Source of the DNA: Sphagnum compactum
Taxonomy: Eukaryota
Direction of reading: 5' to 3'
DNA length: 64,000 nt
NCBI GenBank assembly: GCA_965153455.1
Contig: OZ234493.1
Coordinates: 35,392,213 to 35,456,212 of the forward strand
Shown: piece after piece, positions 6,998 through 63,166 of the stretch
How the letters are laid out: the number at the start of each line of letters is the position of its first letter
How positions within the stretch are numbered: the stretch's first letter is position 1
Made by a program: the position numbers and the translations under genes
The notes under the pieces: model-generated
The model's database searches: none
What the model was told of the DNA's origin: nothing
What the model saw: only the letters and a program-made list of their open reading frames with translations

Positions 6998-7334
6998 CTT
7001 GGTCTGGCTGCTATTCACATGTTCAGTTGTGATTTGTTTGCCCCATAGTTCCACTTGGTCTGGCTGCTATTCACATGTTCAGTTGTGATTTGTTTGCCCA
7101 AAGTTCCACTTGGTCTGGCTGCTATTCACATGTTCAGTTGTGATTTGTTTGCCCCATAGTTCCACTTGGTCTGGCTGCAATTCACATGTTCAGTTGTGAT
7201 TTGTTTGCCCCATAGTTCCACTTGGTCTGGCTGCAATTCACATGTTCAGTTGTGATTTGTTTGCCCCAAAGTTCCACTTGGTCTGGCTGCTATTCACATG
7301 TTCAGTTGTGATTTGTTTGCCCCATAGTTCCACT
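6998..7334. repeat. Minisatellite, 6 x 56 bp
   Basis: Units start at 6998, 7054, 7109, 7165, 7221 and 7277 (CTTGGTCTGGCTGCTATTCACATGTTCAGTTGTGATTTGTTTGCCCCATAGTTCCA), near-identical, no spacers. Confidence 0.97.
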
Positions 7335-10515: not shown

Positions 10516-13500
10516 TTAATGCCTCCAGTCTTTGCTGCCATTGTCTTGAAGCTCTGTGGATCCCTGGTTCAAGTCCTTCAGCATCTCCACCACTTGTTGC
10601 ATTGTTGGTCTGTTTGCAGGGGAATTTTGTGCACACATCGTTGCTGCCTGCCATATATGTGCATAATTACTTAGGCACAATTTGTAAGCTACAAAGCAAT
10701 GTGCCACAAAATTTACCTGGCAACATATCAACCTGCCTAACAAGCAAAGACAAAGATTTTCCCACAACTGGGAAAGTGAGTTCAGTGTAAGGTAAAGCAC
10801 AAGGGTGAGGGCGTTACTGAAATATGGGCCCATGCGAGGTGGCAGTGAAGTGCTGCCCAATTTCAGTAATGCCCTTGTATGCATGCTTTACCAAGTGTAA
10901 AGATCAACCTTGCATTTTGTTTTTTAATTTTTTTTCCCATCAGGTATCACAGGAAAAGAAGACAACAGGCTTTACCAAATTGGGAATGCCTGCAGGAGCA
11001 GAACTTTCTGTTTTGGAAAAGCCCGGTGGGATTTTTTACGCTCTGCAAGGTGCTCTCTAGATACACTAGAGAAATGAGAGGAGGTCTTTATTCTACCTGT
11101 ACCACCCTGGTCAATTCATACTCATGGAATTCGCCGCACAGCTTTGGATCAGCTAAGTCATGAAAGTTTCCTTGCAAGACCAAGGGGCCAGCCCACTCCA
11201 CAATTGTCCGCTTCGTGGCCCCTATCCGTTCAATTGGCTTCCTCCCACTGATGAGCTCCAGTAGCAGTATTCCAAAGCTGTACACATCGCACATCTCAGA
11301 AACTTTTCCCCACATGGCATACTCTGGTGCTAAGTATCCGAGTGTACCCTTCACTCGTGTTGTTACATGTGTTGCACCCTCTGGAATTAGCTTTGCAAAT
11401 CCAAAATCCGCCAACTGGGCCTCAAAATTCTCATCCAAGAGAACGTTGCTGGCCTTGATGTCCCGGTGAATAATGTGGGGTTTTGCATAGTGGTGTAAGT
11501 AACTGTACAGAGACACCAGACAAAAACAATTAACCATTTTTTGCTTGTCACCCACATGCTAGCTTCTCATTTTACATCAACAGGTAGCTGGTATTGTAGC
11601 GTTTACAAAAAGCTTGTAAACCCTAAGACCCATTTCATCAATTGGTGAATGTCTCTTGAATCCAGAACATCAGGCCTGCTTTTGCAGTTCTTTGACGCTG
11701 CCCAGGCACACTTCAGTGAGTTTCAGTTGGTTGCAATTCAGGGAGTGAAATCTATTGCATTTCCAGAAGCAGACAAAAGACTCAGTCCTGATGTTGGCCA
11801 TCCAGCAGTTGAGATACAGAAGACAGGGATTAGTACTTACGCAAGGCCTTCAGCAGAACCAGTGGCGATTTTCATTCTCCGTTGCCAATTGAGGGCAGAC
11901 TCTGATGAGAGTTCGCCATGCAAATGGGATAGCAAACTGAGCTTGGGCATGTAGTCGTACACAATCAAGCGCTCCTGGCCCTCCGCACAGTAACCTCTCA
12001 GGCTTAACAAGTTTTTGTGTCGAACACGCCCCAGAATTTCAACTTCTACTGCAAACTCCATCTCTGCCTTAGTGCTCCACACTTTCAACCTTTTCACTGC
12101 AATCTGCTTCCCCATATCACCCAGGGTCTCTCATTTCAGCTCCAGAGAAGCAAATTGATGATACCTTGCAAAATACAGTCAAACGGAATTGCACACAAAT
12201 AAGACACTGCAATTTCCCCTCAAGAAAGCACTGGTAGGTAGGTAGTCACATGCAATGCGCTAGGTGATTGAGAAAGTCCAGAAAGTAGCAAACAAAACCC
12301 AATCTCACCATAACAACAACAATGCAGGTGCCCACTTTAGGTCCAAACCTAGTACCATCCTGAAGGCTAGGAACTGACTCATGTGCTGAAGATGATGAGG
12401 TTCTGTAGAGAAGGCAACATAATCAGTCAAACAGGCATATTCTAACAGAGTCTGCAAGCTGCAAAGGGGGAAAAGAGGAGCATGTGGTACACTAGAGTGT
12501 GGGATTAACAGGCCATGACATGACTCCATACTTGGTCTCCATTCGGTAGTTGGCCCCAGTAAACTCTGCCAAAGCCACCTTCCCCTATCTTGTTGTCGTA
12601 GTTGAAACTGCTTGTAGCTGTATGCAATTCTCTTAATGAAAATATGCGCCATGTACCACGACCATGACCACCACCACCACCACCACTTTTGTTGTTATCC
12701 ACCAGCCTGCACTCACCAATGACATCATAAAGCTCAAAACATCATTCACATATTTTTTCCATCCAACACATAATATCTGATGATGTCAAGAGTCTGCCTT
12801 TGAGCATCTCCATGGGCACTGAGTAGTGAAATCTTGGATGAGGTACAGGAGTCAAATCCAGTGGATTCACTGGAAAGACTGCAGTGACTCTGAAAAAATG
12901 CACAGCTTTCAGAGCACTGGAGGAGCCCTGGACCAGTCTAATAGACACAGTCCAACCGTATTTATTGACTGCTCCCTGTTTCTGATTGGCTAGATAGTTT
13001 GATTGGTCCAAGTGGGTTGCTATTAGTAGTCTCCCACCTAGTTGTATTCCCAGTTTCAGTTTCATGGGTGTGGTTGGAAAAAAGAAAGTAACTAAAACTT
13101 GGATGTGAGCAACATTTTTGCAGGGTCACATAACAAGCACTGCTGGAGATGCTCTTAGATCATCAAATGCTGCCCTTGAGATTGCCAAAAGCTGAGCCTG
13201 CCTGAACTATACCCAGCTTGACATCGCCTTCCCACATGGCTGCCCAACCCTACTTCCCATCATGAGTTTGGATGTGTCATTGGACAATGGAGGAGGAAGA
13301 AGAAGAGCAGCCCGGATTCAATCCTGTAATACTTCGGTGTAGCTTCATCCCAGTCTTTGTTTTCACATGATCCTGGCGAGGCCACCTTCACCACTGCTAG
13401 AGATTTTCAACAAAGTAGTAGGTAGTACTGAAGAAGTCCAAGAAAGAGGGAGGGAAGAAACAACTCACATTTCTTCACTTGCGCGCCCCCTGCAGCACCA

Positions 13501-23100: not shown

Positions 23101-25649
23101 TTTGAAATTTGTCAAATTCACTCCTTCAAGTGTTTTAGTTATTTCAATAATGCTTTTTGTAAAGAAGTTGCACAACTTACAATGAAAACCTAAAATGAAG
23201 CCAACAATAGAGTTAATAGACCTCGTTTAAAATATTCACAACTTATGATGGGGTTAAAGCATGATTGGGGTTCCCTTTAAGGAACACCAAGGACTCACTC
23301 TTAAGAACTCAAATTCACCTTTTTCTTCGCTTTTCTTATGACCTATCGTAGATTTCCCCTTTTTTCTCATGTAAAATGAAATAATTTTGTTCCAATTTTT
23401 ATATAGGCATTTAAAATATCTATTGTTTTCATTTATGAAAGTGAAAATTTATATATATCCAATTTGGACCATGTTCTATTAATGACCCAAAACTCTTAGA
23501 AATTTCATTTTTTGAAACTTTTTACATTACAATAAGACATTTGGTTTTTACCACATTCGTACATTTTATTACATCAGTACCTAAGGTATTTGTAATAAGA
23601 ATCTTGGGCTACAAAAATTTGTTTAAACATTCCTTATGAATCTTTGAATTTTTTTCTTAGAAGATAGTCCTAGATTTTATTTCCAAGACCTGGTAGGAAT
23701 CACGAAACTTGTTCAAATTTGACATGCTATACATAGAATAGATACAACATGTTTTAAGTGAGAGGGTCCACCGAGATACAAAAGGAGACGGTCCTTTTTG
23801 GTACCCCAACTATATTTTGATCCAATGAAAAGTTGAAAATGAAGCCCCGCAACAAAGTGAAAACCTTATTTGCTCAAAGTTTTCAAAGTTAATTTGCATG
23901 ATGTACACAAAGGAATATTAGAAAATTTTGATTGTTACAATGTGATTGTTCACATCGACAAGAATGCCAATGCAACCTCAATGCTCACGTTATTATAGAT
24001 GGGAAATATGGAAACACTTTTTGTTTTCAAAAAAGACAGAACCTTAAAGGTCACGTGCAACTATTTGTGACATCAACATCACCTCTATAATGTGATGACA
24101 CACATCCACTTGTTCCTAGCCCCAACCATAGGGTTATTTTGTCACAAAATAAGAAAATTATGAATTGGACAAAAGTTCATGGTAAATTGTCCTATTAATC
24201 ACAAATGTTCCCAAGAAAAAACTCCAAATTCATAAAATTTAACACTTCAAGGACTTATTTTGGACTTGGAATCACATTGATCTAAAGCCTTGTGGAAAAC
24301 TTATTTTCATTCAATTAATTCAATATTGTGTTCTATTCATAATTTCATTTCACATAAAAAGTTGAATATATTTGCAAAAGTCCATTTTGAATAAATAATT
24401 TGGTATCTTTTCATTTCCTTTTTAAAGTCATAAATATGTTACATGCTATTCAATAATGACTCCTTTCTAGCATTTGATCAAGATACCAAAGATACATAAA
24501 CCTATATAAAAGCATAACCCCATTGAAAATTGCAGTGTGGCTTAGAAAAATTGACACCTTAGTATGCCAAGACCCAACGATAGTTGTAGGCACTTACATA
24601 GGAGCACATGACACTCTTTTCATTTGTGTTTAGCTCCTATTTATGTGTTTGATTCCTCTCAAGTGTGTGTGGTTGGTTTTATTTTTGTGTGGTTAACTCC
24701 TTTGTTATGTGTTTGGCTCCTTGTTTGTGTGTTTTAATCTCTTTTTCTATTTGCATTTGGCTCCTCTTTTGTGTGGGCATGTCCACAATAAAAAGAGCCA
24801 AAACAATTGTCAAATGTAGTGTAACATTGTACCATATCTACTTTGGAAGACAAATTTGTATATTATATTTATTTAAATTACTATTTTTTTCACCATTGTG
24901 TTTATTTAGTAATGATGTTGCTCCTTCACGAATTTGGAGTCATTTCATTATGTTTTGAGAATCTTTTAATAACACACATAAAATATTTACAAAATAGTTG
25001 TCAAACAAGGCTTTTGAATTTGAACATCCTTTTTTGCTCATCAAATGTGCACCATTCATTCCCAAAATTCTAGAATATATCATGTTGATGATCAAAAATG
25101 CAAAAGGAGTTGAGATTTGTAAAACATTATAGTTATTACACATATCAACATATTTGATTCACTTGAGTTTTTGGCCTTCCAAATTATAAATTTTGATAAT
25201 GTGTCTAAGAAAATGTTTTCATTCTTATGTGTTGGATTGCATCGATAAATTTTATGGAAAATAAAATGTCAGTTAAATAATGTTTTCATTGATTGCCAAC
25301 ATGTTGTCTCAAGGTAAATCCATAAATTAGGTCCAATCCCCATAGTTTGTATACTTAATAGGTGATTTTATGTGATAATTTTTTCCAAATAAGGTAAAGT
25401 TTAATCTTACATACAATTTTGGGATGTATATTTTGTGTTGAAAATGTATTAATTTCTAACGTGTAATGAAAAGTCATTTTGTATGCAAATTCATTTTCAT
25501 GTACTTGATATTCACTTATGAATACAAATGGATAACATTGCAAACAATTAAATGAATAAATAAATAAATTTCATAATGAAACTTTTAAAATGTGGTTAAA
25601 CATAGTCCTAAATTTTTTTATGTCCATGGCACCTTTGATTCCATTTATT

Positions 25650-26630
25650 GTGGAGAGACCTATTTGTGTTTAACCTTTTTTTGGTGTGTATTTCATTTTT
25701 TTCTTATGTGTATTTGGGTCCTTTATTTTGTGTGAGGCCCTTATATTATGTGTATTCAACTTTTTTTCTTTGTGTATTCAACTATGCTAGTAGGTGTGTT
25801 TGGTTCCTTTTTGGTTTGTGTTCAGCTCCTTTCTTTTGTTTGTTTGGTTTTTTCTTTGTGTATTTAACTTTTGTATTATGTGTAATTGGCTTTTCTTTAG
25901 TGTGTACTTGATTTTTCTTTTTTGTGTTCAACTCATCTTTTGTTTATATTTTCCTTCTCTTTGGTGTGCATGTGGTTCTTCTTTTGTGTGTATGTACTTG
26001 CTTCCTTTTTTGTGTGTGAGACTTTTCTTTGTGTGTAAGTAGCTCTTCTTTGTATGCGTTCGGCTTTTCTTTTGTGGGTATTTGGCTCCTCTTGTGTATG
26101 TCAACTCCTTTTGTGTGTATTTGATTCATTTTTTTGTGTGTTTGGCTTTTTTGTGTGTGTTTGGCTTGTTTATTCTGTGTGTTTAGCTCCTTTTTTGTGT
26201 GCATTTGGTTCCTTTGTATTGTGTGTTCAACTCATGTATTATGTTAATTAGTTCACTTTTTGTGTGTACTTTTCTTATTTTATGTGTGTTCAATTTATCT
26301 TTTGTGTGTATTTGAATATTTTTTTGTGTGTATTCAATTTCTATTTGTTTGCACTTGGATTCTTTCCTCTATGTATTTGGTTCTTTTTAATATGTGTTTT
26401 TGTTGGTTTTGTGTGTTTTCAGTTTCTCTTTTTATGTATATATTCAAAAAAAAATTTGTTTAGGTTTGGGTTTTTGTTTGTTTGTGTTAAGTTCCTCTTT
26501 TGTGTGTATTCGGTTCCTCATAATTAACTTTCTGAATTTTAAATTATTTCTAAATTCAAGGATTTTATGAAAGTGTAAAACACTTTTCATTTGTATTCAA
26601 GTCCTTTTCTATGTGTTTTTCGTTCCTTGT
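25650..26630. repeat. T/G-rich degenerate minisatellite (TTTTGTGTGTGTTTGGCTCC-like); second patch at ~24620-24780
   Basis: Recurring TTTGTGTGT..GGCTCCT motif at roughly 20-bp spacing; explains the F/C/V-rich spurious ORFs. Confidence 0.75.
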
Positions 26631-27679
26631 TTGTGGAGGGTAAAATTCGTGGGGCTTAGCTTTATTGAAATAAAGGGCCTTAGAAGTGAAAGCCAAAAGG
26701 AGCCTGAATTTTGGTAAAATCTTGCTTTGAGTGCTTTACTTATAGTAAAAACTACTTCATTTTAAAATATGTTTTATGGGAGTACATCTACAAAATAATT
26801 AGCCATAGTAAAAGTAACCAATGGTTAATTTTTTATGTTTTTATGTCAAAGGAATGATTAAATAATTATTATCTAAATCATTATTCAGAATAATGAGTTA
26901 TTTCATAGTAAATAAATATTAAATAAATTATTGACAAATCATTGATTGATAAATATTAAATATGGATTATTTATTTATAAACTTGTTGACTTATTGAAAT
27001 TAATTTAAAATTAACTAACTATTATTTCTTTTTTTAAATTAATAAATTAATTAATATGAATAATTCATGAATATTGATAATTTTACTGTATCAATTTGCG
27101 ATTCAATATCTAATTAATTATCAAAAAGTTTTGAAGTAACTAATAAATATTAGTTGATTGCTTAATTATTTGGTATTAGTTAAAATATAATTAAATGATT
27201 AAATAAAATTATTTAGTTCATACTTTATACTAACTAATGAACTATTTGAAAATAATACTTTATCAATAATTAATGCTTGTGTAATACAATGATTATTTCA
27301 TATTAATATGACCTTGCTACTATAATTTAATCATATCTTAATAAATATGATATATTATAAATGAACCATACAAAATCAAAATGATATTTCTTTTCAATCC
27401 AATATGCCCATAATATGGTCAAATATATTTTTAATATACCTTGAATATAATTTCAATGCACCTTAATATGTTAAATAGGCTTAATAAATGTTTAATACAC
27501 CCTGAATAAAAACTATATAATATTTTTTAATGTAGTACACAAAACCATAGTGTACATTAAATGTATACACACACCATAATAAGTAACCAAATTGGAATTA
27601 ATTTTGCAAGTAAATGAACATATGAGCTTATTCATGGATGAAAAATTCAAAAAACTAGTCAATGTGGAAGGATGTGTAA

Positions 27680-27837: not shown

Positions 27838-29690
27838 TAAGACCTTGATTGGTGACAGGGTTGTTAAATGATTAGTACAAGCAATGGCGACTAAACAATA
27901 TATCAATGAAGGACTACATTTGTAATCATGTTACATATATATATATTATGTTTTTTGGACTCTAATGTGAATGTTGATGTTTTAGCAACATTAATACAAT
28001 TAAAGTGCAACAATACCAATTTGATATATTAATTGTAAGTTTAACATTCTTGAACATGCACTTGCTAGTCACATGGAAGAGAATGAATCATCAATGACGA
28101 AGATGATTTTTAGTGATCATATCCAATTGCCCATTTGATGGCATGGATTATTTTTTATCACACAAGGATCAAGCCACAAAGCAATACCAATCATCGATGG
28201 ATGAAAGGGATCATTTTTCAATCACCCATGGATGGCAAAGATAATTTTCAAAAACCCAAAAATATGTTTTAGTAAAGAAACAACGATATAGATCATTTCC
28301 AATTGCCCATGGACGGCATGGATTATTTTAGGTTGCCCATACATGGTGGACAATTTTGGTAGCCTACCTCCGCCCCCGTCCCTCCCCCAAATTGTGTTGA
28401 TCGTTTTCAGTTGCTTAGGATGACAAAGCCCATATAGTAATAATAAGACAAAAAAAACCCTAATGGTGTAGATCATTTGAGGTCACCTATAAGAGGCACA
28501 ATATTTATCAATAGGAAGGATTGACCTAATTTTTTTGGTTGAGTTTGACAAAGGTTTGAGGTTTAAAAAATAAAGATTAGAAATTCATAGGTTTAATTCA
28601 ATCTCTTAAGAACTTTCTAATTTCATTTATTGCATTCTAACACCCATTTCACATTAGATAAAGAAGTGTTTAAAGATCGTGTGTGAGTAAGTGGGTTGTT
28701 CAGTTCTTGGTATGTGAAAAGACCATGTTGGTCTTGATTTCATTGAATTAGAAGTTTGGAACATTTGAAATGTCTAGGATGTGCCAAGGTGTTCAATCCA
28801 CTATTTGTTTTTTTGAAAAATTGCCATATTTAATGTAAATTTACCCAATTTCCATTTAGTTGAAATCTAAACTTACCAAGACAATGAAAAGAGAAACAAA
28901 ATATGGATGAATGAGGTGGTATCAACTATCAATCAATTGGATAACAATAACAATGACAAGAATGCAGGAACAAGTGGAGAAAGAGTGCGAAGTACATTAG
29001 ACATTTCAATTTCGACCTCCCGCTTTATTGTGACGTGTAGTGTCGTGACATACAGTGTCATAAGGGTGTAAATCCATAGTAAAATCTACTAAACAAAAAG
29101 ATTAAAACCAATCAAAGGTAGAAACTAATCAACCAAAAAGAGATGCATGCACATATACATACAATGCATAGGAGGAGGCTGAGATGAAAATCTCATGTAT
29201 TAAAGTTGCAAAGAAGGAAAAAAAAAAATGTATGTAAATGGTGGCCGTGTAATGGCCGCCATGAGCATCTAAAAATCCAATTTAACTATGGAGGAAACTC
29301 TCCCTGACAAAGGAATTTTAGAAGAAGGGAATAACTTGGCTTTTTATACAGCTGCCAACAAGCTGAAACCGTAAATACTTAATAGCATACAGTAACCTAA
29401 GAACGTACATTAACTTTAAGTTCGTACGTTAATCCTAAAAACTTACATTAACCCTAAAAGGCATGAGTGACATGCCCGTAATTACCCGTCATGTATGAGG
29501 CCATGCATACGGGCATGACAGCTGTCGTGACGTGTAGTGTCGTGACGTACGATGTCGTAAGGGTGTAAATCCATAGTAAATTCTACTAAACACAAAGATT
29601 AAAACTAGTCAAAGGTAGAAACTAATCAACCAAAAAGAGATGCACGCACATATAATGCATAAAAAGAGGTTTAGATGAAATTCTCATGTA

Positions 29691-29700
29691 TCCCCCCCCT
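29691..29700 (-). promoter_or_regulatory. Polypurine tract (AGGGGGGGGA)
   Basis: Lies just downstream of pol and abuts the start of repeat A' in sense orientation. Confidence 0.8.
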
Positions 29701-29741: not shown

Positions 29742-32700
29742 TCAAGGTTTTATAGGAGAACATGATGAACAGTACCACATGCCGGCGGGAACTTGAATGA
29801 GCTCCGGCTTGAGGCAGAATAGATGGTATCCACCATTACAATTATCGCAAAGCAACATCTGATCAGCATCGTCTATCCTTTGACATACCTAACATGGGTA
29901 GTCAAGTGGAGGAATCCAAGTTGACGTGATGATGGTAGGATCTAAGTTCGGCAGGTGGCAAGGTGCAAAAATTTTGGAGTGACCCTGAATTGTGCGTTCG
30001 TCAGTTCCTTGTAACTCCAACACACCTAAAGGCCTGATTGCCTTAATCCTCGAGATAGTGCGACCAGAAAAAATGTCTAGGGTATCATTCGGTTGCCGCT
30101 GGAGATACACAAAATCATGAACATCAAATTGTCTCACCTTAGGTTTGTAACTGTACCTCGTGTGTGTGCATATCGTAAGGTGTCTCGATGCTGTGCAATG
30201 GACAAGTTCTCCATGGCTATGGGCATAACCGTCCTAAATAGAGCAGCCTTCTCTGCAATGATCTTAGCCCAAGCGGCCGAGGAGTCCAAGTCCACAACCT
30301 GGTCCATTTGAGTAGCAATGGAAGAGGGTGGAATAGGATGTCTTCCAAAAAGTAGAAAGTAAGTAGAGAAATGAGACAAAGAGGCGTGTTTGGACATCCT
30401 GTAACCCATGGCGATGTAAGGTAGGGCCAGGTCCCAATCCTCTTTGTTCCTAATGAGGCAAATCTTCCGAAATCCCTTCTTGCATGTCTAAACCATCCTT
30501 TCTGCAAGGCCATCAGCTTAGGGATGATCCCTTGAAATCCGGCGATGGTCAATGAGAGTATGGTTAAATAGGTCTTGGAATTCTCCTCTGAATTCTGATC
30601 CTTGATTAGTAAGGCACTCAGCACAAGTCCCAAACCTACTTAGGACTTGTTGTATGAAAGCCTGGCTGGTGTTGTGTGATGATTTGTCCGGCAGCGCAAC
30701 AAGCTCGACCCACTTTGAAAAATGCTCAATCATAATCATGATGTAGACATTACCCTTGGAGGTCTGTGGTAACTCTCCAGCTAAATCACATGACCATCGA
30801 TAGAACATGCCCTGAATAGGGAGTGGAAAAAGCGTGAGCTGTCAAGAGGAGAAGGAAGTTCTCACTCTATCACATTGTTCACACTTAGCAATGGTGTCTC
30901 GGACTTGAGCATACATACCTTTCCAATGGTAATGAGGAGCAAGAAGGCTATAAGTAGGCTTAACTCCAAAGTGTCCAAGCTTCGAGTGTACCTTCTGAAT
31001 AAAACCAGACCGTTCATGTGGTGGAAAAACCATTCTGTTGCCTTGTGGTAAGCATCGGACGAGGTGATTGTCCCTCCTTGAGTAGCGTTTGGACTGTTGT
31101 TGTATGCGATTTCGATGACTTGATGTAACTTGGGAAGGGTATTCTTCATTCTGAAGAAACCTCAGAGTGTTCAAGTCTTCCCATATATCCAAAATGGGAT
31201 GCTCAACCAGGTTACATTGCAGTAGTGCAAGATAACTAGATGCATAAGATATATGTATTGTTGGAATCTGGTCGAAGTCTTGCTTGGTTTCTGAGAAATC
31301 TTCAGAGGTAGTGACGGGCCTCCGTGACATGTTATCCGTGTTCTGATGTGTAATGCTAGGTCGGTGAATAACCTTGAACTCATATTCCTGAAGCATAAGC
31401 GCCCAACGAGCTAACTTACTAGTAAGCTTGTCGTTGGTCATCAACCACTTGATAGGCTGGTGGTCGGTATATAAAATGAACTCAATGCCATAAAGATACG
31501 GCCTGAAATGTATGACGGCCCATACAACAACAAGACACTCCCCCTCGTATGAAAAGTAGCTACTCTCAACCTTGTTCTTGCTTTAGGATGCATAGGCAAT
31601 AACATATTCCTTGCCTTCCTCATCAAATTGGCCAAAAATAACACTAATACCCACAGCATTCCAGTTAGTGTGTAGAATGAAGACCTTGCTAAAATTAAGT
31701 CTTCTCAAAATGGGGAACTCTGAAAGCTTTTCCTTGAGTGTTTAAAAAGCTTCCTGAGCCTCTTCACTCCATGTCCAAGCAACATCCTTTTTTAACAATG
31801 CATAGAGAAGATGAACAATAGTACTGAAGTTTCGGACATAAATCATGTAGTAATTACACAGTCCGATGAAGCTCTTCAAAGTGTGAACATCAATAGGATT
31901 GGGCATTTCCAAAATGGCTATTACTTTGGCCCAATGAGCCATAACACCATTTGGCAAAATTCTATGTCTAAGGTAGACTATTGAGGTGACAACAAACTCA
32001 CACTTTTTAGGATCGATCTTCATATTGACTTTGTGGAGCCTTTTGAATAACTCTTCAAGATGAGCCAAGTGTTGCAGGAGTCCCTTGCTATGCACTAAGA
32101 TTGTCATCTATGTAGCACTTTAGGAAATCTGCCCCTTCGAGAACCTGGTCCATGAATTGTTGAAAGACTGGTGCATTCTTCAATCAAAAAGGCATCACAA
32201 GCCATTCCCACAACTTGTTGCTTCCATGGAATGTCGTTTTCTTGCGATCCTTCGCATCGAACACAATCTGGTTGAAGCCTTGCTTCAGTTCCATAATTGT
32301 GAAGAATGTTTGAGTCTCTAATGCTATCAAACAGTTCTTCAGGGAGGGCATGGGGTATCCGTCCTGAGGTGTAACCAGGTTCAAAGGCCTATAATCCCCG
32401 CACATCCTTTTCTTAGTCCATAATCCAGCTGAATTCTTCTTTGTTGGCATTATTGTAGCAGCTACAAAATTAGAATTTGATGGCTGAATGAGACCAGCCT
32501 CATGGAGCTCTTTGCATCTTTCATCTACTAGTTCCCACTCATGCTTGCTCAACTTATGCCTCCTCTGATAGATGGGTGTCTCATCTATAAGGTCTATAGA
32601 GAACTGCATGGTCTTACACCTACCTAAGTCTTTCATTGAGAATGCAAACACATTCTCATACTTAATTAACAAGTCTGTGACCTGGTTTCTCTCCTTCTTG

Positions 32701-33149
32701 GTGAGTTGGTTCCCCATAACGAAAGGGTAGTTGGAAACACATGGAATGGAGTTGGAAAGTGTGTTTGAAAAACCTGGTGTATTGGGTTTTCCACTATCCA
32801 ACTGCGCAAATTCGTAGAAGGTTGTAATTGTTTCTCCAGAAGCTGATGTGCCTCCAGGTGTATCAAAAACAACTTGAGTCAAAGTACATGGTACCTCCTC
32901 CCCCCCAACACTAAGAGTGAAGTGTAGAGTGTTGAAGATAGGCAAGTGTACTTGGTCGGGGTGCCATGTAGTCGCATCGCCAGAACTGCAAGTTGATTGA
33001 ATTAGTGCTGGTGTTGTGTACATTTGAAAGAATACACAAGTTACGAATAACCATGTAAGGGAATTCAGGTCCATGCATCTTCCCAATAGAAGGTTACGCT
33101 CCAACCTAGTCACCTTGGTGTGACTAGTAGTGCTAGTTTGGAACCCCAT
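29742..33149 (-). pseudogene. pol: Gypsy pol (RT, RNase H, integrase, C-terminal PHD finger), disrupted by frameshifts and stops
   Basis: RT: KRMCGDYRPLN, KTTF, VMPF, CYIDD (~32104-32118). RNase H: YTDHQPIKWL..KLARWALMLQEY. Integrase HHCC: HSKLGH..CEQC. Integrase core: WSCDLAG..EHFSKW..TNQGSEF..DGLAER. The coding region is split over at least 7 ORF fragments. Confidence 0.95.
29760..29894 (-). other. PHD finger (C4HC3) at the integrase C-terminus
   Basis: Manual translation gives C*VCQRIDDADQMLLCDNCNGGYHLFCLKPELIQVPAGMWYCSSC, in frame with ORF 29889-30137. The single TAG is plausibly a decayed CAG. Confidence 0.9.
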
Positions 33150-33874
33150 AGCCCTTTTTCTTTATTCTGGGCTTGGTTCATTCCAAGTGGCTGAAGCATG
33201 ATGATACACCAGGCCTGGTCCATTTCCCTAAAAGGCGTGTGTTCCTGGGAAGGAGACAAAGGTGGGCCAAACACCTCTTGGTTTTCCTATTGTGTTCGCA
33301 GGAAACCAAGAAGGTTTCTCTTGCCTTGTAACTGGTTGGCAGGAGCTTTGATCATCCAATATGTGAGAAACCTGCAGGTTGGGGTCTATGCTGCAAGTCG
33401 CTACGAATGTCGCGTTGCAGGTCGCGGCGTTGCAGGTCGTGACACTGCGGCTTGCGATGGACATTGCGTTGTAGGTCATGGCTTGTGATGGACGCCGCAT
33501 TGTAGGTCGCGGCTTGTCAATGGATGTGACACTGCAGGTCGTGCCGTTGCAGCAATGGCGGACGCAGCGTTGCAGTTCGCCAAGAAGCAATTTTGTCCTC
33601 CTATGTCTCTGGGCGAGAGAGAGAGAGAAAAAGAGAGAGAGAGCTTTGAAACTTGCTGGACGATACGTCATTCCCCCGTTTGGTTTCGCTCTTCCCAACT
33701 CCTCCGATCCCGGCTCTGTTGGTTGGCAGAGGTGTAATAGCACAAGCTCCTTCTAGCAGCTGCAACACCAGCAGTAACAACAACACGAGCAACAACAACA
33801 TCTGCAGCAAAAAGAAACAAAAAAACTCACAGCTAAGAAAATTTGCCGCTTTCAACATTAAGCAATAGAGAGTA

Positions 33875-33888
33875 GTTTTTCTAGAATT
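33875..33888 (-). promoter_or_regulatory. Putative self-priming PBS (AATTCTAGAAAAAC)
   Basis: Located at the inner edge of B'. It is the perfect 14-nt reverse complement of 34002-34015. No TGG tRNA-type PBS is present. Confidence 0.7.
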
Positions 33889-34040
33889 AAAATTGCAAAG
33901 AAGGAAAGAAAAGAAGTGTATGTAAACGGTGGCCGTGTAATGGCCGTCGTGAGCATTTAGAAATCCAATTTGACTATGGAGGAAACTCTCATTGACAAAA
34001 GAATTCTAGAAAAACCAACAACAGAAGGGAATAACTTGGC

Positions 34041-34048
34041 TTTTTATA
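34041..34048 (-). promoter_or_regulatory. TATA box of retroelement 5' repeat (TATAAAAA)
   Basis: About 33 nt upstream of the putative self-primer/TSS at 34015; conserved in copy B (29341-29348). Confidence 0.6.
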
Positions 34049-34093
34049 CAGCTGCCAACAAGCTAAAACCCTAAACACTTAATAGCATATAGT

Positions 34094-34197
34094 AACCTAA
34101 GAACGTACATTAACCCTAAGAACGTACATTAATCCTAAAAGCATACATTAACCCTAAGAACGTACATTAATCCTAAAAGCGTACATTAACCCTAAAA
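34094..34197. repeat. 19-bp tandem repeat in retroelement repeat B' (5 units; 3 units in B)
   Basis: AACCCTAAGAACGTACATT / AATCCTAAAAGCGTACATT units. Confidence 0.9.
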
Positions 34198-35732
34198 GGC
34201 ATGAGTGGCATGCCCGTAACTACCCGTCATGTATGAGGCCATGCATATGGGCATGACAGCTTGTTGCTTTTTCCATTGTTTTGTTACTTGGACCTGTGTT
34301 TGAGTTTTTGTAATGTGAACAAAACCCAAATGGGAATTTGGATGAAGAGATGACTTAATGAATGAAGTGATGCGGGGATTTGGATTAGCAGAAAATGCCA
34401 AAAGAAGGGATGGTTGGTAATCATGAAACTTAGAGGTTGTTGTTATTCCTTAGCTGTTTTTTAAAAAAAAATTTGTGATTGCTTGTTGTTTGCAAGTGAT
34501 GAGTTCTGTTTTGCATTCTTCATGGTTTGGATGGTGTTTGGCATTGATCGATTTGGTGTTTTGTGTTATTTTTGGATGTGGTGCGTTATGAAGGGTGGAC
34601 ATTGCCATATAAGGAGGAACTTCTAATGTTGAGAAGCCAAGTTTTTGGGTTAGACATTTTGTGTTTTTAGGAATGTATCTTTGAAGCTTTCAAGTGGGGT
34701 GCGTGGGTCTTTGTGTCTTCTAGTTTTGAAGAAGCATCAAGTCAAGTAGTCTTGGTGAGGGATGAATGCCCTAACAGCTATGGGAGCTTTTTAGTAGAGG
34801 GCTTTTGTATCTCTACTACGCCATAGCTTTCTCTTTAGGGACCAATTAAGGACAGTGATGAAGATCTAAAAGGGTTTCAAGAGCAGTCTTCATAACAATT
34901 TGGTTTGTGGTGAGGAGAAATGTCATGTTATTTGGAATATAGTGGGTTATGTGTTGATGGGAAGGAGTACCCACAATTGTGGGAGCTTTGAAAGGAATTA
35001 ATGTGTGACTAGACAACCTTGGGGTTATCAAGACAAATCGGTAGTGGGAAGTCTAGGTTTTCATTTTCTTTTTGTCCAACTCCTGGGATCAATCTGTGGG
35101 AGTTGGGGTGGATTTCATATTCTGAGATTGTGAGCTGGGAGTGTGAATTGCCATGACATGACTAATGGGCTCAAAAGAGAGAAGCCGAAGTGAATTTGTT
35201 CCCTTATGATCTGTAGATTAGTGTTGTTAGTATAGTAGATGCTAATAAATATAGTGTTGTTCTGCTCCTATGTATTTCTATAAAGTTCCATAGAAATCAG
35301 TCTGTCTCACAATTTCATCACAGTAGGTGTTACATTAGGCCTGTCCCACAATTTCATCTGGTGACAGTTTAACCATATTTTCCATCATCCACCCTGGCAT
35401 TCCAATTCAATTTCTCGTCTTTGCTACCATGGCCTTTTGACATCTGGCTGCCTCACCATAGTTTGCGTTGTCTCCTTGCTTATCTCCACACTCCACCAAA
35501 GACACAAAAAGATGAAAAAGTTGTGGAAGTTGAATTTTGAGATTGAGAATAAATGAATGTAGGTTAGGAACGTGGAAAATTTATAAGAGTTGAATCTAAG
35601 AAACAAGATGAATGAATTGCAAGCCGAAGAAGATGAAATTTATGGACAAATCTAGGAAACATAGGTAAAGCCAGGATGATGAAGCACAGGGATGCCAGAA
35701 CATTTTATGACCAAATGGGCAGAGAAAAGAAG

Positions 35733-44000: not shown

Positions 44001-46910
44001 TTTTGTCCTTCATATGTTTATCAATTTAGTTATATTTACAACATTAGAAACCAAAAAGACATGAAAACCTTGAATGAAAGCACAAATTGAAAATAAAAAC
44101 AAAAAAATAAAACTCTAAACAATATAGAAAAAAAGAAAATTAAAAAAAAAGGAAGGCAAAAGAATTGATTTCACGTAAGATATAAAATCTCAGTGAGTCA
44201 TCAATTCCATACCATAATTTCATGAAAATGAAAACTTCCTCCAATGAGTTACTCCAACCCCTTGGTTATTTTCGTTTAGCAATTTTTTTTTCAAAATAAA
44301 AAAGTTAGAAGTTAGACTATCAATAATTAATAATAATTAATTGTCGGCATCTAAGGATGTAGTGAACCATGATCATCATTTTTTTTCATTTAGGTTTGTG
44401 GCATATGAACATCAGGCAAAGACTTGATTTACCATTAGGCCAAATAATCTAACATTAGTAGGCCAATTCTTTGAAGGTTGCAATGACATCATCCATAAGG
44501 CAATCAATGCGAGGTCTATGTAAAACACTTCATAATATCAATCTTTCAATTTTTAAAGAAACACTTTCACAAGATCTCAAAATTAACCCAAAGGCACCTA
44601 CACCAAAGAATAGTTTTTTAATCAACACTTTTGAATTTAAAACACCCCTTCATAAGAAAATTCATCATGCAAAAATAACCAAATTTCAAATTAAGACCAA
44701 CAAGAAACGTTAGTTGACAAATTGGTTGTGTTAACATTTTCCATTTTTATTGAATAAAAAGAACATCAAACTTTTTAATATTTTTTAGAAAATCAATATC
44801 AGAAGCACAAAAAATAGCTTCATTGCTTGTTATTGTCACCCAATGGTACTTCAAGTTGGTAAATATGTTAAAAAGAACTATCGATTTTCACAACTTATTG
44901 ATTCCGCTTCAATCTATTAACCCTTCTAATACCTATAATCAAGGATTCGATGTTGTGAATCACAATTTAAAAAATAGAAAAAAAAACTAATAATAAAATA
45001 ATGAAATGTGAACTTATTAGATGAAATAGTAAAATAAAAAATTACAAAAAAAACAACAAAAAAAAACAATATGATGAAAAAATAAAATAACAAATTTTTA
45101 CTTGGTTGGAGGGCATAGACTACTAGATAATTTTTTGCAACTTGAAAAATAATAAAAAACAACATATCCACAAGCCCCACTATAATGTCTTCATTTTCAG
45201 ACAAATTTGCAATGGACTTTTCTATATCATAACTTCAAAACTTTCTCCATTTGTTCAACACATTTTTCACCTTCAACTATGCATGTTTGTTGGCTTTTCA
45301 TTCTCCTTTGTTGACATTATCTAACTGTTTCATCAATTTCAATTCAAGAATTCAAAATTAAAAAAAACATCAATAGTAGGAAAGTCGTAGTTAAAGACAG
45401 TAACAATAGTGTGATTTGACGTAGAAATAGAAAAGACATTGAGAAAGAAATTCATTACCCAAACCATCAAAGTTTCTAATAGTCTAAGGCATTGAATGGT
45501 TGTAATAGTTTGGAAAAAAAAAGGATCAACATTTGTTTTAGAAAATTGAGTAGATTAACAAACTTAGGCAGTTGTAAGTAAATGTCAATCCATCATCAGA
45601 CCCCAAGAGACCACCACCTATAGAATTACAAAGAAGTGTGCATGGTGTAATAGGGACAAATCCAAAAACCTTGACATCAAAGAAAGGGTTGGGTTGGGTA
45701 GATGATAATGCATGGATAACATGATCTTGGATAATTGAATTTAAACAAGGCCCACTATAGAGCTTCTTGGAAGTTGGTTCATCTACATGCAACATTGATA
45801 AATCGAAGATTCTACAAAACAAAAATATATATATTTACAAGTTACAATGTCTTGGAAAAGAAAAGGAAAAAACAATGTTGCCTCATGCTAGCATAGCCAT
45901 AGCAAGAAAAAACAATGATATTGCAATAACAATATGATGTAAACAACAAAAAAAGATTGTCAAAGACGATGGTAGCTTTGATTATATGACACACTTACAA
46001 AAGAAACATAATGATTAATAAACATTGTAAGAAACAAGAAAAAAAAGACACTCAAATGGAGAATGCAAAACCCTATTTCATAAGCACACAAAATTTAAAA
46101 ATCAAAAGATTGTTAAAATCTTTTGACAACAACAAAAAGGAACTTGGAAGAAGATAGTTGGAGATGATGACTTCAACAAAGCCATGTATTTGCAAAAGTA
46201 AACATGGAACAAAAGAAATTTAAAATCTAAATATCATCACAATTTTCCAACAACACAAAAAAACAAAACATTGCTAACACAACCTTAGCAAGAGATGATG
46301 ACAATATTGAAAAAATAGGAATAAGGAGAACACAAAAGAAAATTGTTAGAGATGGTAAAGCTTTGACCATGCACTTGCAAAACAAACATAAAAAACAAAA
46401 CAACAAAAACAAGCACATGTCAAATCGCTACAAGAAACATGAAAAAGAATAAAAAGCTTTATTACACAATGCATAAACACAAAAACAAAGATTAAAAAAA
46501 AATCATGATGATATTTCAACAATGCTGAAAAAGAAGAATTTAATCAAAGATGATGGTGACTTTTCAATGTCAATGGCAAAAAAAACAAAACAAAACAAAA
46601 CGAACAACAATTAGCAACCCAAAAAAAAAATAGAGGAAAGAGAGGGGAAAAGAGGGGAATGGAGAAAGGGAAGAAGCATAATAAGCATAAGAAAGGAGTA
46701 GGAGAGGAAGACGCATGAGAGAAGGAGAAAAGAAAGAAGACGAGGAAGATGGGAAAAAGGAGAAGAAGATGGAAGCCACTCCAAAATTTTTTAAAGACTA
46801 ACCTAAACATCTCCACCGTTTGCTAACCATCACCATTTGTTTTAGGGTAAGCTTTAGGGCGAAAAGAGAGTGAAAGGAAGTTGTAAAAAAAAACCGAAAG
46901 TTTCTTTACA

Positions 46911-47025
46911 TAGGTGAAGTGTCTGAGAATAGACCCTTCCAGATTTTCTGCGGCTCCCCTTGGCCTACCAGCCTTGGGACCTTGACCTCAAATCTGAAAG
47001 GGTCTATTCTCAGACCCTTCTCCTA
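46911..47025. mobile_element. 115-bp hairpin / TA-flanked MITE-like element
   Basis: 36-bp arms (46911-46946 vs 46990-47025) with 3 mismatches, 43-nt spacer, TA at both ends. Confidence 0.7.
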
Positions 47026-47705
47026 TACAGATAGGGTTTTTAACTAAACAGTAGGAAAATGCGATTCCTGATTTCGATCCTTGAACCGCGTGACTAACTT
47101 AGCCGGTGAGTAGTACCTACGTAACCAGCCCGCTTGTTTACGGAACGCTTATGAAACCGACTGCCCGGTCTATAACGGCCCACGCCAGAGCTTAGAAGTG
47201 CAGGCGGTTAAGGAAGGGCTAGGTCGGGCGCCCACGCTTGTAAGTAGCCGTGGCGGAAAGTAACCGCCGTACGTCCAAACCGCATGTGAGACGACAGTGC
47301 TACCGACCGCACTTCACACGACAGCCGGCGACCGCGAGACTTGGGATTATTTTGGAACCGTCCGGCGGACACGTGAGTGAGCGACCGATGGACGGTGGCC
47401 GGCAAGCGTCAATAAATGGGAGCTTCTCGTCTTCCTGCAGTATCGTTCGCCTCGTACCCCTCGTCTTCTCGCAATCTCCGCTCTGTTGCAGACTGCTCTT
47501 GCAAAGGCTCTCTCTCGGTGCTATCCGCTTCTTGCCCTGCTCAAGCTTTGCGCCCAGTTTTCGGTGAAGAAGAAGAAGCGTTTTCTTTGGTTTTCTCACA
47601 GTGTGGTAAAGCGCCGCCTGTGTGTGTGTGTGTGTGTGCTCATTTTAGTCATCTGTTTCCAAGAACCCTCTCTCTCAGGGTCCCAGAAAGCTCTCGCAAG
47701 AAGAA

Positions 47706-52179: not shown

Positions 52180-54439
52180 CATTAGAAGAAATCTGAAAGT
52201 CAATGACTGAATTTGTGACTCATTTATAGTTGTAATGGACACATGCGACTAAAAATAACTTAATTGCCTTGGACAAGTGCCATAAGATAGTCAATCGCAA
52301 AAGACATTACACGGCCATGAAGTTGAAAGCATAGTCACAAACCTTATGACTAGGCCATAATTTTTCATCCATTGCCATGGATGATCATTAATATGATGTG
52401 GAACCCCAATTTGCAACTGCATTCGTGACTACATTTGGGGTAGTCGCATGTTACCAAATGTGCCATTGATGGGTGGTTAAGATTTAATCACATGGTAATT
52501 TTAAAAAGCCAATGGCCATAAAACACGTGAAAATTTTCCATTTGTTAAAATATATATAATATGATTACAGTAATTAAATATTATAATTATAGTAATCAAT
52601 TATTTTAATTCATTAATTATAATCTATCTTAGGCTAAACTATAATAGGCAACATATTCTAGGTTAGGCTTGGGTAGAATAAGCTAGCTAGCATAGGTTAA
52701 GTAAGTAGGTAAGATCCTATTTATTTTATTGGGGACAAGCTTTTTGATTGGCTCATCCCAAATGGCACATGCACTATATTTATAGTGCATACCATGAATC
52801 TAATCCATTCTTTCACCTACTTATATACTTTACAAAATTAAAGTTGTAGACAAAAGATATGGGACAATTCTAATGAAAGGGAAACACTACAACATTATCA
52901 CATCCTTTGTCCCATACAAAAACATCATCATATATCCACACAATTTAAAATATTAATTGTTTTCACTAACTATTTACTATTTATTACCTAGCCTACCTAA
53001 TAAATTAATATCCTAGCCTACATTTCATAAAATTAATTGTTTAACATAGTTAACTAATTAATCAATTAATACAAAAACATTACAACATATCCATAAAATA
53101 ATTTTTTTTTGCTTAACTTATAACCTACCTACCTACTACCTACTAGTAGCTATCCTACTTATTACATACTACCTAAGTTACATACCTACTATCTAATATC
53201 TAGCCTACCTAATAAATTAATTACCTCGCCTACAATAAATGAATTTTTAACATCGCTAATTAATTAATCAATTAATAGAAAAACATTATGACATATCCAC
53301 AAAATAAAATACCTTTTGCTTAGCTTACCTACCTACCTACTAACTACTAGTACCTATCCTATTTATTACATACTACCTAGGTTAGATACCTATTATCTAC
53401 TACCTAGACTACCTAATAAATTAATTATCTACCTTACATTTAATAAATTAATTATTTAACATAACTAATTATTTTATCAATTGAGACACAAACATATGAC
53501 ATATCCACAAAATAAAATACCTCTTATTTAGCTTACCTACCTACTAACTACCTACTAGTCCCTATCCTACTTATTACATACTACCTAATCTAACTAGTCA
53601 ATTGATTAAGTACCTAACCTAATTAATTGATTAATTAATATGAAAACATAATCACATATTCACATAATAAACTAATAAACCTACCTACTACCTATATTCC
53701 TACTTACTACCTATTACCTAGTTTACGAATTGATTAATGACCTAGCCCACCAACTACCTACCTAGTTAACCTAGCCTAACTAAGTCTAACCTTCATAGCC
53801 TAGCCGATTAGCTACACCTAATAAACTAGCCTACTATTACCTATAAATAACTTAGGCCAATTAATTACGTATGCAAGCTAGGTTAGGCTACCAATGTACA
53901 TAGGCCTACTTAGTTTAATGTAACCTATTAAGCTTAGTTAGCTTAGTTTACCAACTAAGTTATAATAGCCTTTTCTAGCAAACTATTAACTATTAGATAT
54001 TATTTCATGGAAGACCCATGGATAATTGTAAAAAAGACCCATGGATGGGTACATTGAAAGGATAATAGTCCAATTGAAATAACAAAATTTGCCATATGTG
54101 GTTTATGTTTGTTTGTTCATGTGGTATAATATACTATTGTAGTTGAAAAACCTTTCATTTGTAGTTGCAAAAACAACTACGTTATCATCCATCAATGAAT
54201 GTAATCAAAATTGGATGATTTTGTTCACTTTTCATCTACATGTAGTCGTAAATTGCAATCGCATCTACAACTAAAATTTGGTTCAACCCTTCTTGTAGTT
54301 GCATGTGTGACTACAACAAGTTGCAACTACATAGACACATAAGACTAACACACTGCTAGTTATAAAATCAATTGATTTGGACATTAATCGCATATTAGTT
54401 GCAAAAATATGGTTTAAATGGACAACATTTCTTTTTGTG
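52180..54439. mobile_element. Non-autonomous CACTA element (2.26 kb), related to 17422-20136
   Basis: Decayed termini CATTAGAAGAAAT..ATTTCTTTTTGTG with TSD ATT (52177-52179, 54440-54442). Same GCGACT/GCAACT subterminal motifs and CCTACCTA-rich interior. Confidence 0.8.
52930..53700. repeat. ~207-bp degenerate tandem repeat inside CACTA element
   Basis: ACATATCCAC/TAAAATA anchor recurs near 53085, 53291 and 53499, with partial copies near 52930 and 53653. Confidence 0.75.
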
Positions 54440-55091: not shown

Positions 55092-56161
55092 CATTACTAG
55101 AAATTACATCCTATTCCGTTGAAGTTGACCACCCAACTAGTTGTTGAATGGAAACACTATCACAAAATAACATCCTAGTGGATTCGACTATCAATTTCCA
55201 TTGTAATGGATCTTTAATGGAAAATTCCTACTAAATTGCACTCCTATCTATGTGCCACTGGGGTGCGATGGGAATAATTGTTCATTGACAAAATTTTCAT
55301 TTGAAGTTTGTACCTCCATGGATCAATGGAAATACATAGTGGAAATTGTATAGTGGAAATGCATAATGGAAATTGTAAAGTGGAAATACATAGTGTAAAT
55401 TTAAAAATGAAAATTACAAAGTGGGAATGCACAATGGAAATTGCATAGTGGAAATGCACGATGAAAATTTCATAGTGGAAATGCACAATGGACATTGCAA
55501 AGTGGAAATGCATAGTGGAAATGTATAATGGAAATTGCATACAAAAAATGCAAAATGGAAATTACATAGTGGAAATGCATAATGGAAATTGTGAAGTGGA
55601 AATGCACAATGGAATGCACATGCAATTTAACTTATAATTGGATATATGTAATTTGGTACATGTTATATTACCAAAGTAACTGGTAGTTGGATGGCAAAGA
55701 CCTTGGATTGGTGGTCTCCAAGGTTCAAACCTTGATACCAACAATGGAAATTCGATCGTATGTTGACTTTTACATGTCATATGTTGATCGTACAGTGACT
55801 ATATGTTGATTGTACATTGACCATATGTTGACCATACAATGATTGTATATAGGTCATATGTTTGGAAAATATGAATAATAGTAATATTGTTATTTATAAA
55901 TTAAAATAAAATATCAACGTACAAAACCACTACTTCTTACATGAATGATGAATGGAAATGCATAGTGGAAATGCACTGGCCAAGTTTGATGAACCAGTGA
56001 ACAAGTTGTTGGGTGGAATCGCCAATGGAACTGTTGCCACACAACCCATTTCCTAGCAATGACCACTAGGGCAAAGTCAATTTCCACTATAGTGGTTTTT
56101 GGGATTTCCAGCCATTGTTGGGTGGAATACACATTGGAATTAGACATAATTTCTTGTAATT
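55092..56161. mobile_element. Non-autonomous CACTA element (1.07 kb), second family
   Basis: Decayed termini CATTACTAGAAATT..AATTTCTTGTAATT with TSD TAT (55089-55091, 56162-56164). GTGGAA/TTCCAC motifs at both ends. Confidence 0.7.
55325..55620. repeat. ~13-bp GTGGAAATGCATA/ATGGAAATTG array
   Basis: About 20 head-to-tail TGGAAAT units inside CACTA 55092-56161. Confidence 0.85.
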
Positions 56162-61539: not shown

Positions 61540-62060
61540 AGATATTGTTGAAATGTATTAAATAACCAAATTAAAATGCATTTTCAATTGAATTAATTGA
61601 CCTTTCTTCTATAAAAACATTTATATGTGTGAAAATCTTGAAAAAATCAATTTAGAATGGAATTTAATTTTTTTCATTTGGAAAAAGTTTGAAAAAGATA
61701 ATAATGATTAAAAAAAGAAAAAATATTTAAAGCACCATTGTTGAAATGTATTAAATTGCAAGTTTGAAATGTATTTTTAGTCAAATTAAGTAGTTATTTT
61801 TTATTTAAAATATTAAAGATGTGTACGTCTTGGGAAAATCTTCTAAAATGAATTTGTTACTTTTTCATTTGGACAAAGTATGAGAAAGATAACAATGGTT
61901 GAAAAAAAGAAAAAATCTTCAAAACATCATTGACATTGAAATGTATTAAATCGTAAGATTCAAATGAATTTGCATTCAAATTATATAGTGTTTGTTTTCT
62001 TTAACATATTAAAGATGTGTACATCATGGAAAAATCTTCTAGATTGAAGTTTTAAAATTT
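61540..62060. repeat. ~195-bp degenerate tandem repeat (about 3 units)
   Basis: TTGAAATGTATTAAAT anchors near 61548, 61741 and 61936, with shared TTTTTCATTTGGA..GAAAGATAA segments. Confidence 0.7.
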
Positions 62061-63050: not shown

Positions 63051-63166
63051 CTAGTCCCTATTCACTGGGGGGTTGACTAGTTCATTCTGTGTTTCACTAG
63101 ATTTTGAATGAATTTAGACTTTTTACCATGGTGAAACTAGTCAAACCCCTAGTGAATAGGGACTAG
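63051..63166. mobile_element. 116-bp hairpin / MITE-like element
   Basis: 32-bp arms CTAGTCCCTATTCACTGGGGGGTTGACTAGTT vs AACTAGTCAAACCCCTAGTGAATAGGGACTAG, 2 mismatches. Confidence 0.72.

Follow-up and report, generated by a model that had tools for sequence, protein, structure and literature searches.

Retroviral-type integrases are taught to act at both ends of a linear cDNA, with circles carrying two long terminal repeats (LTRs) mostly seen as dead ends and cleavage of their junction as a debated side activity. How, then, does an element integrate when the sequences that its integrase should recognize lie away from the ends set by reverse transcription? The question is raised by a decayed Ty3/gypsy retrotransposon in a 64,000-nucleotide stretch of the Sphagnum compactum genome (GenBank assembly GCA_965153455.1, contig OZ234493.1, positions 35,392,213 to 35,456,212 of the forward strand), here called the window, whose own numbering we use. 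We consider it probable that this Ty3/gypsy lineage moved both integrase attachment (att) sites into one back-to-back CA-GC-TG junction inside U3, with the upstream junction being cut and the cDNA ends being joined separately.

The window copy is a dead, internally deleted element of 5,233 bp on the minus strand (34258 to 29026), flanked on both sides by the 4-bp target-site duplication (TSD) GCTT. In the sense direction it reads X1, primer-binding site (PBS), broken pol, polypurine tract (PPT), Y1, GC, X2, Y2, where X and Y are the two parts of a split repeat. X begins with the terminal TG and Y finishes with the terminal CA, and 2 bp lie between them at a palindrome. Neither TG nor CA marks the end of X on the PBS side or the start of Y on the PPT side; these two are fused to each other, a joint that can be read as the AT microhomology described in the initial annotation of this stretch or as one PBS base followed by the start of Y. 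That annotation, made from the sequence alone, also held that cDNA ends and att sites are not coupled here, and the layout agrees: the att-like ends sit inside the LTR as defined by reverse transcriptase (RT), away from the PPT and PBS boundaries. The coding remnant comprises RT, RNase H, an H2C2-rve integrase and a PHD finger, interrupted by stops and frameshifts; gag, protease and most of a DNMT domain are missing. The copy is old, since X1 and X2 differ at 25 of 319 aligned bases and Y1 and Y2 at 17 of 169. Its parts are as follows.

29022..29025, no strand: left copy of the TSD GCTT; the fifth base is not shared by the two sides
29026..29200, minus: Y2, outer Y copy, carrying the element's 3' terminal CA motif (decayed here); 17/169 differences from Y1
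29200..29202, minus: X/Y fusion of the PBS-side X end to the PPT-side Y start, with one PBS base between; varies across copies
29202..29520, minus: X2, inner X copy (probably the 3' part of U3, R and U5); 25/319 differences from X1
29514..29529, no strand: att junction CACGACA-GC-TGTCATG (sense), 2-bp spacer at 29521-29522; conserved in its own and in distant families
29523..29691, minus: Y1, inner Y copy, adjoining the PPT
29692..29699, minus: PPT, a G run, from sequence; boundary constant across copies
29760..29894, minus: PHD finger at the integrase C-terminus, in a broken frame (PF00628, E 8e-11)
30524..31024, minus: integrase, H2C2 zinc finger and rve core, with in-frame stops (PF17921, PF00665)
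31382..31696, minus: RNase H (PF17917, E 2e-29)
31970..32420, minus: RT core, spread over two frames (PF00078)
33060..33386, minus: remnant of a DNMT3-like domain, C-terminal part; the tblastn match to a fuller copy's stretch of 2238 residues starts at residue 1024
33874..33888, minus: PBS of self-priming type; 14-bp perfect inverted repeat with 34002-34015
33889..34258, minus: X1, outer X copy, opening with the 5' terminal TG
34002..34015, minus: predicted self-primer and predicted transcription start; PBS-complementary, about 33 nt past the TATA box
34041..34048, minus: TATA box, from sequence; equivalent position in young copies
34259..34262, no strand: right copy of the TSD GCTT, matching the left

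A 19-bp tandem unit at 34080-34198 is expanded in X1 relative to X2.

The sequence at 29514-29529 is CATGACAGCTGTCGTG, and seven of the eight pairs about its centre are complementary, as expected of the 16-bp palindrome with one mismatch that had been noted there. Across the 64 kb, 102 windows of 16 bases have at most one arm mismatch, many of them AT-rich, and we therefore rejected the idea that the palindrome is significant by itself. It is real by its position and its conservation, and it is a family-wide junction. The claim that its halves equal the outer ends of the element holds exactly for the left half, CATGACA, which is repeated at 34252-34258. The right half, TGTCGTG, departs at two of seven positions from TATTGTG, the other end of this decayed element (29026-29032), but matches the element end exactly in most other copies. 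The junction query gave 380 candidates, and our locus counts refer to top-ranked matches, 40 being scored out of 182-380 candidates. Among the best 30 junction matches most have the layout internal-Y-2bp-X-Y. The spacer between CA and TG is 2 nt in 36 of 37 junctions (GC 20, AC 6, GT 5, AT 4, TT 1, AAT 1) and is GC in 21/21 long-form young copies; AC, GT and AT are transitions from GC and would fit decay of methylated CAG/CTG. The palindrome's single mismatch (C in the Y arm, A in the X arm, position 5) recurs in 7/10 families, an asymmetry that seems conserved.

The boundary between PPT and Y is constant across copies, and the family lacks the two full direct LTRs of a Ty3/gypsy element, with CA beside the PBS and TG beside the PPT. 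The initial annotation had named as outcomes contrary to its reading a 4-5-bp genomic remnant between CA and TG, or copies that end at the PPT and PBS boundaries. The spacer is not such a remnant, and none of 30 5' loci starts at the PPT boundary.

Exact 4-bp TSDs were found for 17 of 22 paired ends in a first set and 27 of 28 in a second, with 5 loci common to both. The family has TG...CA termini and a TSD in the 4-6 bp range of Ty3/gypsy elements. The suggestion that a TSD beginning with GC might mark a target preference was rejected, because only 2/40 exact TSDs begin with GC (mismatched TSDs were left out of this count); the GC at the start of GCTT in the window is chance. One short-form copy (L140 / L106) has the flanks ACCA and GCCA, where the G could be a mutation or a retained base of the GC overhang.

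Fuller copies of the element, roughly 9.5-10 kb, show what the window copy has lost. Several contain an open frame of 2,483 codons with protease, cytosine methyltransferase, RT, RNase H, integrase and PHD finger. The Pol order is protease-RT-RNase H-integrase in a fuller copy and RT-RNase H-integrase in the window copy, which is the order of Ty3/gypsy elements. The D, D and E integrase motifs are present in an open copy. Neither the long frame nor any of 12 side frames (100-168 codons) gave a tyrosine recombinase match, and no chromodomain match was obtained after the integrase of a fuller copy, where a PHD finger is present. A DNMT3-like domain (PF00145) lies between protease and RT and has its best PDB matches in DNMT3A (E 1e-8); in L068:2300-3700, the region whose remnant is at 33060-33386 in the window, it is likewise a DNMT3-like cytosine methyltransferase in that place. 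Named relatives come from Calypogeia (85%), Klebsormidium (56%), Volvox, Haematococcus, Closterium and Sphagnum. The integrase region is 56% and 51% identical to two K. nitens integrase-PHD proteins, which are not known to belong to KnitGypsy-Dnmt3 (see below), and the DNMT search had no K. nitens protein among its 43 matches. Since relatives occur in records of Calypogeia, Sphagnum and Closterium, the range of the Gypsy-DNMT3 type includes land plants.

How reverse transcription starts is suggested by the PBS, which by inspection is not of the tRNA type. It is the reverse complement of 14-16 nt located about 33 nt past the TATA box in X, with 15-16 bp of complementarity in young copies. A predicted RNA folds into the duplex of PBS and self-primer. 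Such self-priming complementarity, 14-17 nt long, occurs in two families, the transcript start being a prediction in both.

The comparison of junction and fusion across copies that the initial annotation had suggested gave an invariant junction and a variable fusion. In 21 young copies the U5 end is followed by six forms: AAT (13), AT (2), no base (2), AATA (2), AATC (1) and a 124-nt inverted PBS/leader insert (1). The AT, no-base and AATA forms are each found in both LTR-length subfamilies. A mixed-age set of 32 copies, 12 of which were skipped for lack of a recognised PBS or fusion pattern, gave nine forms among the remaining 20. One X-side deletion of 4 nt was seen among the fusions. Copy-specific variants at the end of X1 recur at the end of X2, and in the long-X group the repeats are closer within a copy than between copies (0.6 vs 2.4 mismatches in the U5 part, 0.7 vs 2.1 in Y; n=15). 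Because the fusion varies, variants of the X1 end recur in X2 and long-X repeats are closer within copies, the fusion is most likely remade in every cycle. In L156:2088-2220 an inverted copy of PBS and leader has been captured at the X/Y fusion, with microhomology to Y.

A circular intermediate with two equivalent junctions would be expected to leave traces of the use of either one. The mirror form X/Y-GC-X-internal-Y was seen in 0/30 5' loci, 0/30 fusion loci and 0/38 junction-match stretches, which are overlapping sets, and no solo X/Y was seen among the fusion loci. Short forms, X-internal-Y, make up 8 of 30 3' loci, with one further truncated example, and have an exact 4-bp TSD in 6 of 7 paired cases. 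One copy (L135:1629-2781) ends in Y-X-Y-X-Y. Both of its inner X units share a derived base that is missing from X1, which indicates that the extra YX unit postdates insertion and that post-insertion recombination occurs.

The junction extends beyond this family. A second PHD-gypsy family in the same genome (L159-L166) has 55% integrase identity and no BLAST similarity in the LTR. It carries CGCACGACA-GC-TGTCATGAC, or a decayed form of it, about 285 nt past pol in 6/8 loci and farther out in a seventh. Its layout is split as in the first family, with a different self-priming repeat of its own (17 nt, ending at X1), 4-bp TSDs in the 2/2 copies having both ends, and a variable fusion. The junction was not seen in four more PHD-gypsy loci of this genome (L167-L170) or in three loci of the second-family type (L166, L198, L212). 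A first metagenome scan with a single-protein query gave no matches; an alignment-based scan gave 80 loci, 20 of them divergent, reaching the end of pol and having a tail of at least 250 nt. For the motif count we used a 10-mer of the window family, and not an earlier pattern that had been shaped after seeing matches. GACAGCTGTC lies downstream of pol in 7/20 divergent loci (6 independent, two being one element) against 0.08 expected from 50 dinucleotide shuffles, and a variant of it in 3 further divergent loci. A PPT-like G run precedes the junction by about 60-200 nt in the 9 divergent loci read by eye. The distant loci showed no clear self-priming repeats. In addition to the standard junction at 1448, locus L225 has a second CA-GC-TG palindrome of different sequence about 212 nt past pol, preceded by another G run.

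These observations suggest a route that departs from the standard one at the integration step. Reverse transcription would be ordinary in outline, self-primed at the PBS and then PPT-primed, yielding YX-internal-YX with a ragged right end. The DDE integrase would nick both strands of the upstream junction after CA, and the 2-bp spacer would leave each of the two CA ends 3'-recessed with a 5' overhang of 2 nt, the geometry of normally processed ends. These would be inserted with a 4-bp stagger, and the two RT-defined ends would be joined separately by error-prone end joining, before or after strand transfer. Since the mirror product is absent, although a 2-LTR circle has two equal junctions, the upstream junction would be used preferentially; most likely this is because, in the standard strand-transfer scheme, the left LTR is converted to double-stranded DNA much earlier than the right. 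The short X-internal-Y form may result from a cut at both junctions, from homology repair between Y1 and Y2 or from later recombination. Internal cleavage would be the main route, because the sequence leaves the cDNA ends without an att site, and the likely gain would be integration independent of clean cDNA ends.

Several points weigh against this reading. In the short-X group the repeats have little or no within-copy advantage (1.5 vs 1.2 mismatches in the U5 part; n=6). No junction was found in 10/20 divergent loci, of which 4 have a G run followed by at least 295 nt and 6 have no G6 run in the tail, and the evidence from distant loci is a junction motif after pol. The reason given for the upstream bias is a guess. 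No cDNA, circle or cleavage product was observed, and the public RNA data, being contigs, do not fix a transcript's start, end or strand. Finally, fusions in the first family hardly ever lose bases from their Y side, which suits a template jump by RT as well as end joining by the host.

This last point introduces the most serious competitor, in which RT itself makes the X/Y joint by adding a non-templated base at the ragged right end and jumping across to the left one. Integrase would then cut the resulting circle, or a cDNA longer than one unit, at the same internal att junction. Non-templated addition and jumping are known activities of Tf1 RT, and the intact Y side in the 20 parsed fusions, the commonest joint and the AATA and AATC forms all fit them. 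Against this, the 124-nt inverted insert and the 4-nt deletion on the X side resemble break repair, and joints in the second family lose 1-2 nt around a shared base. Sequence cannot tell host end joining from an RT jump as the maker of the fusion, and we rate the RT jump as a possible though distinctly less probable account. The initial annotation had proposed endonucleolytic cleavage of the internal palindrome in a circular intermediate. The internal cut, as the probable work of integrase, stands; the plain circle does not. A covalent 2-LTR circle cut at either of two equivalent palindromes accounts for the fusion and the permuted layout and has a precedent in foamy virus (PMC1180852), but it predicts the mirror form about equally often, together with solo X/Y inserts, and both went unseen in the overlapping sets of loci given above. 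We hold it to be unlikely; it survives only with an added bias, which turns it into the upstream-cut reading.

An ordinary element whose LTR is X/Y might have been rearranged once and then copied, or two insertions might have landed side by side. X/Y does read TG...CA as in a normal LTR, and tandem units do recombine after insertion, as is attested by the copy whose additional YX unit shares a derived mutation. Yet wherever PPT and PBS were both found in a copy, the former adjoins Y and the latter X, the fusion has been made anew even among nearly identical copies, and the junction recurs in families at 45-60% integrase identity; the version with adjacent insertions and a genomic spacer was rejected on the 2-nt spacer of 36/37 junctions. 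This makes a rearranged LTR very improbable. Scarcely credible at all is a PAT/Ngaro-like route by a tyrosine recombinase, whether it acts in cis or in trans. PAT, Ngaro and Viper do share the A1-B1-A2-B2 layout, as outlined in PMC4157794, but the frames searched contain no recombinase match, and the TG...CA ends, unselective 4-bp TSDs and DDE integrase all speak against such a route.

Two extensions of the upstream-cut reading can be formulated. A whole clade of DDE-integrase retrotransposons in mosses, liverworts and green algae may integrate obligately by cutting inside and joining ends, with integrase producing both processed ends from one conserved palindrome and the cDNA termini never used, having converged on the split repeats of tyrosine-recombinase elements and on junctions of the IS3/IS30 type; we see the chances for and against this as evenly balanced. 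The element's own DNMT3 might also mark CG on the Y arm of the junction and thereby select the upstream copy. A CG is present at -5/-4 of the Y arm in 8/10 families, and we think this idea improbable.

The window contains further features outside the element. Tandem arrays lie at 6998-7334, 24637-26637, 52975-53588, 55327-55618 and 61670-62048, with units of 56, ~22, 204, 13/27 and 196 bp, respectively. Short inverted repeats with 32-37-bp arms at 46910-47026 and 63051-63166 are possibly similar to miniature inverted-repeat transposable elements. An open frame of 156 codons occupies 11088-11558 on the minus strand.

The junction offers a natural, defined 16-bp substrate for asking whether retroviral-type integrases use internal junctions, and it shows that split repeats can arise without a tyrosine recombinase. 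Young copies with identical repeats exist, and for this reason the intermediates may be observable in the host. Programs that demand matched 5' and 3' LTRs with TG/CA termini, as described in the part of PMC6317226 available to us, would miss or mis-bound this lineage.

Part of this design has appeared in print. A single legend sentence (Fig. 4c, de Mendoza et al. 2018, PMC5890265) gives KnitGypsy-Dnmt3 of Klebsormidium nitens DIRS-type repeats and Gypsy domains; the discussion of that paper does not treat integration. Like that element, the moss family has Gypsy domains, a DNMT3-like domain in Pol and A-coding-B-A-B repeats. The description in the available text of PMC5890265 includes no att junction, primer type, TSD, fusion or mechanism. 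A 2026 preprint, in the portion accessible to us, mentions a streptophyte Gypsy-DNMT3 without its ends (10.64898/2026.05.21.726589), and a legend in PMC9940879 gives 'LTR subparts' for the PHD-bearing Gypsy-7a_cRei of Chlamydomonas. The split-repeat layout is thus already known from that one sentence in PMC5890265, whereas the printed sources covered do not mention the att junction inside the LTR, the self-priming, the remade fusion or the upstream bias. No description of the junction or mechanism was found in this literature; Repbase, theses and the main supplement of PMC5890265 lie outside its coverage and could affect the novelty of these features.

Bacterial insertion sequences of the IS3/IS30/IS21 type use a DDE enzyme on two abutted ends with a 2-3-bp spacer, the junction being made by the transposase. 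The moss junction resembles them in its abutted ends, DDE enzyme and short spacer, and differs in that those are bacterial DNA transposons without reverse transcription. PAT/Toc/Kangaroo, Ngaro and Viper, as treated in the accessible part of PMC4157794, share the split direct repeats A1-B1-A2-B2 but use a tyrosine recombinase, whereas the moss family encodes a DDE integrase, makes a 4-bp TSD and is built with a PBS, a PPT and TG...CA ends. With the Tf1/sushi and Tcn1 chromoviruses, from what those sources provide (PMC6317226; bioRxiv 10.1101/2022.12.06.519325), it has in common a PBS whose complement is the transcript's predicted 5' end; there the CA of the LTR adjoins the PBS, as it does not here, and the moss element bears a PHD finger in place of a chromodomain. 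Foamy virus integrase is described as cutting the palindrome of the 2-LTR circle (Delelis et al. 2005, PMC1180852; PMC2884000, as far as these texts were available). In both cases a DDE integrase would turn an internal CA...TG palindrome into processed ends. In foamy virus, however, the palindrome is made by joining the cDNA ends, whereas the moss family carries it as a constant sequence within the element, and there is no att site at the ends that are joined.
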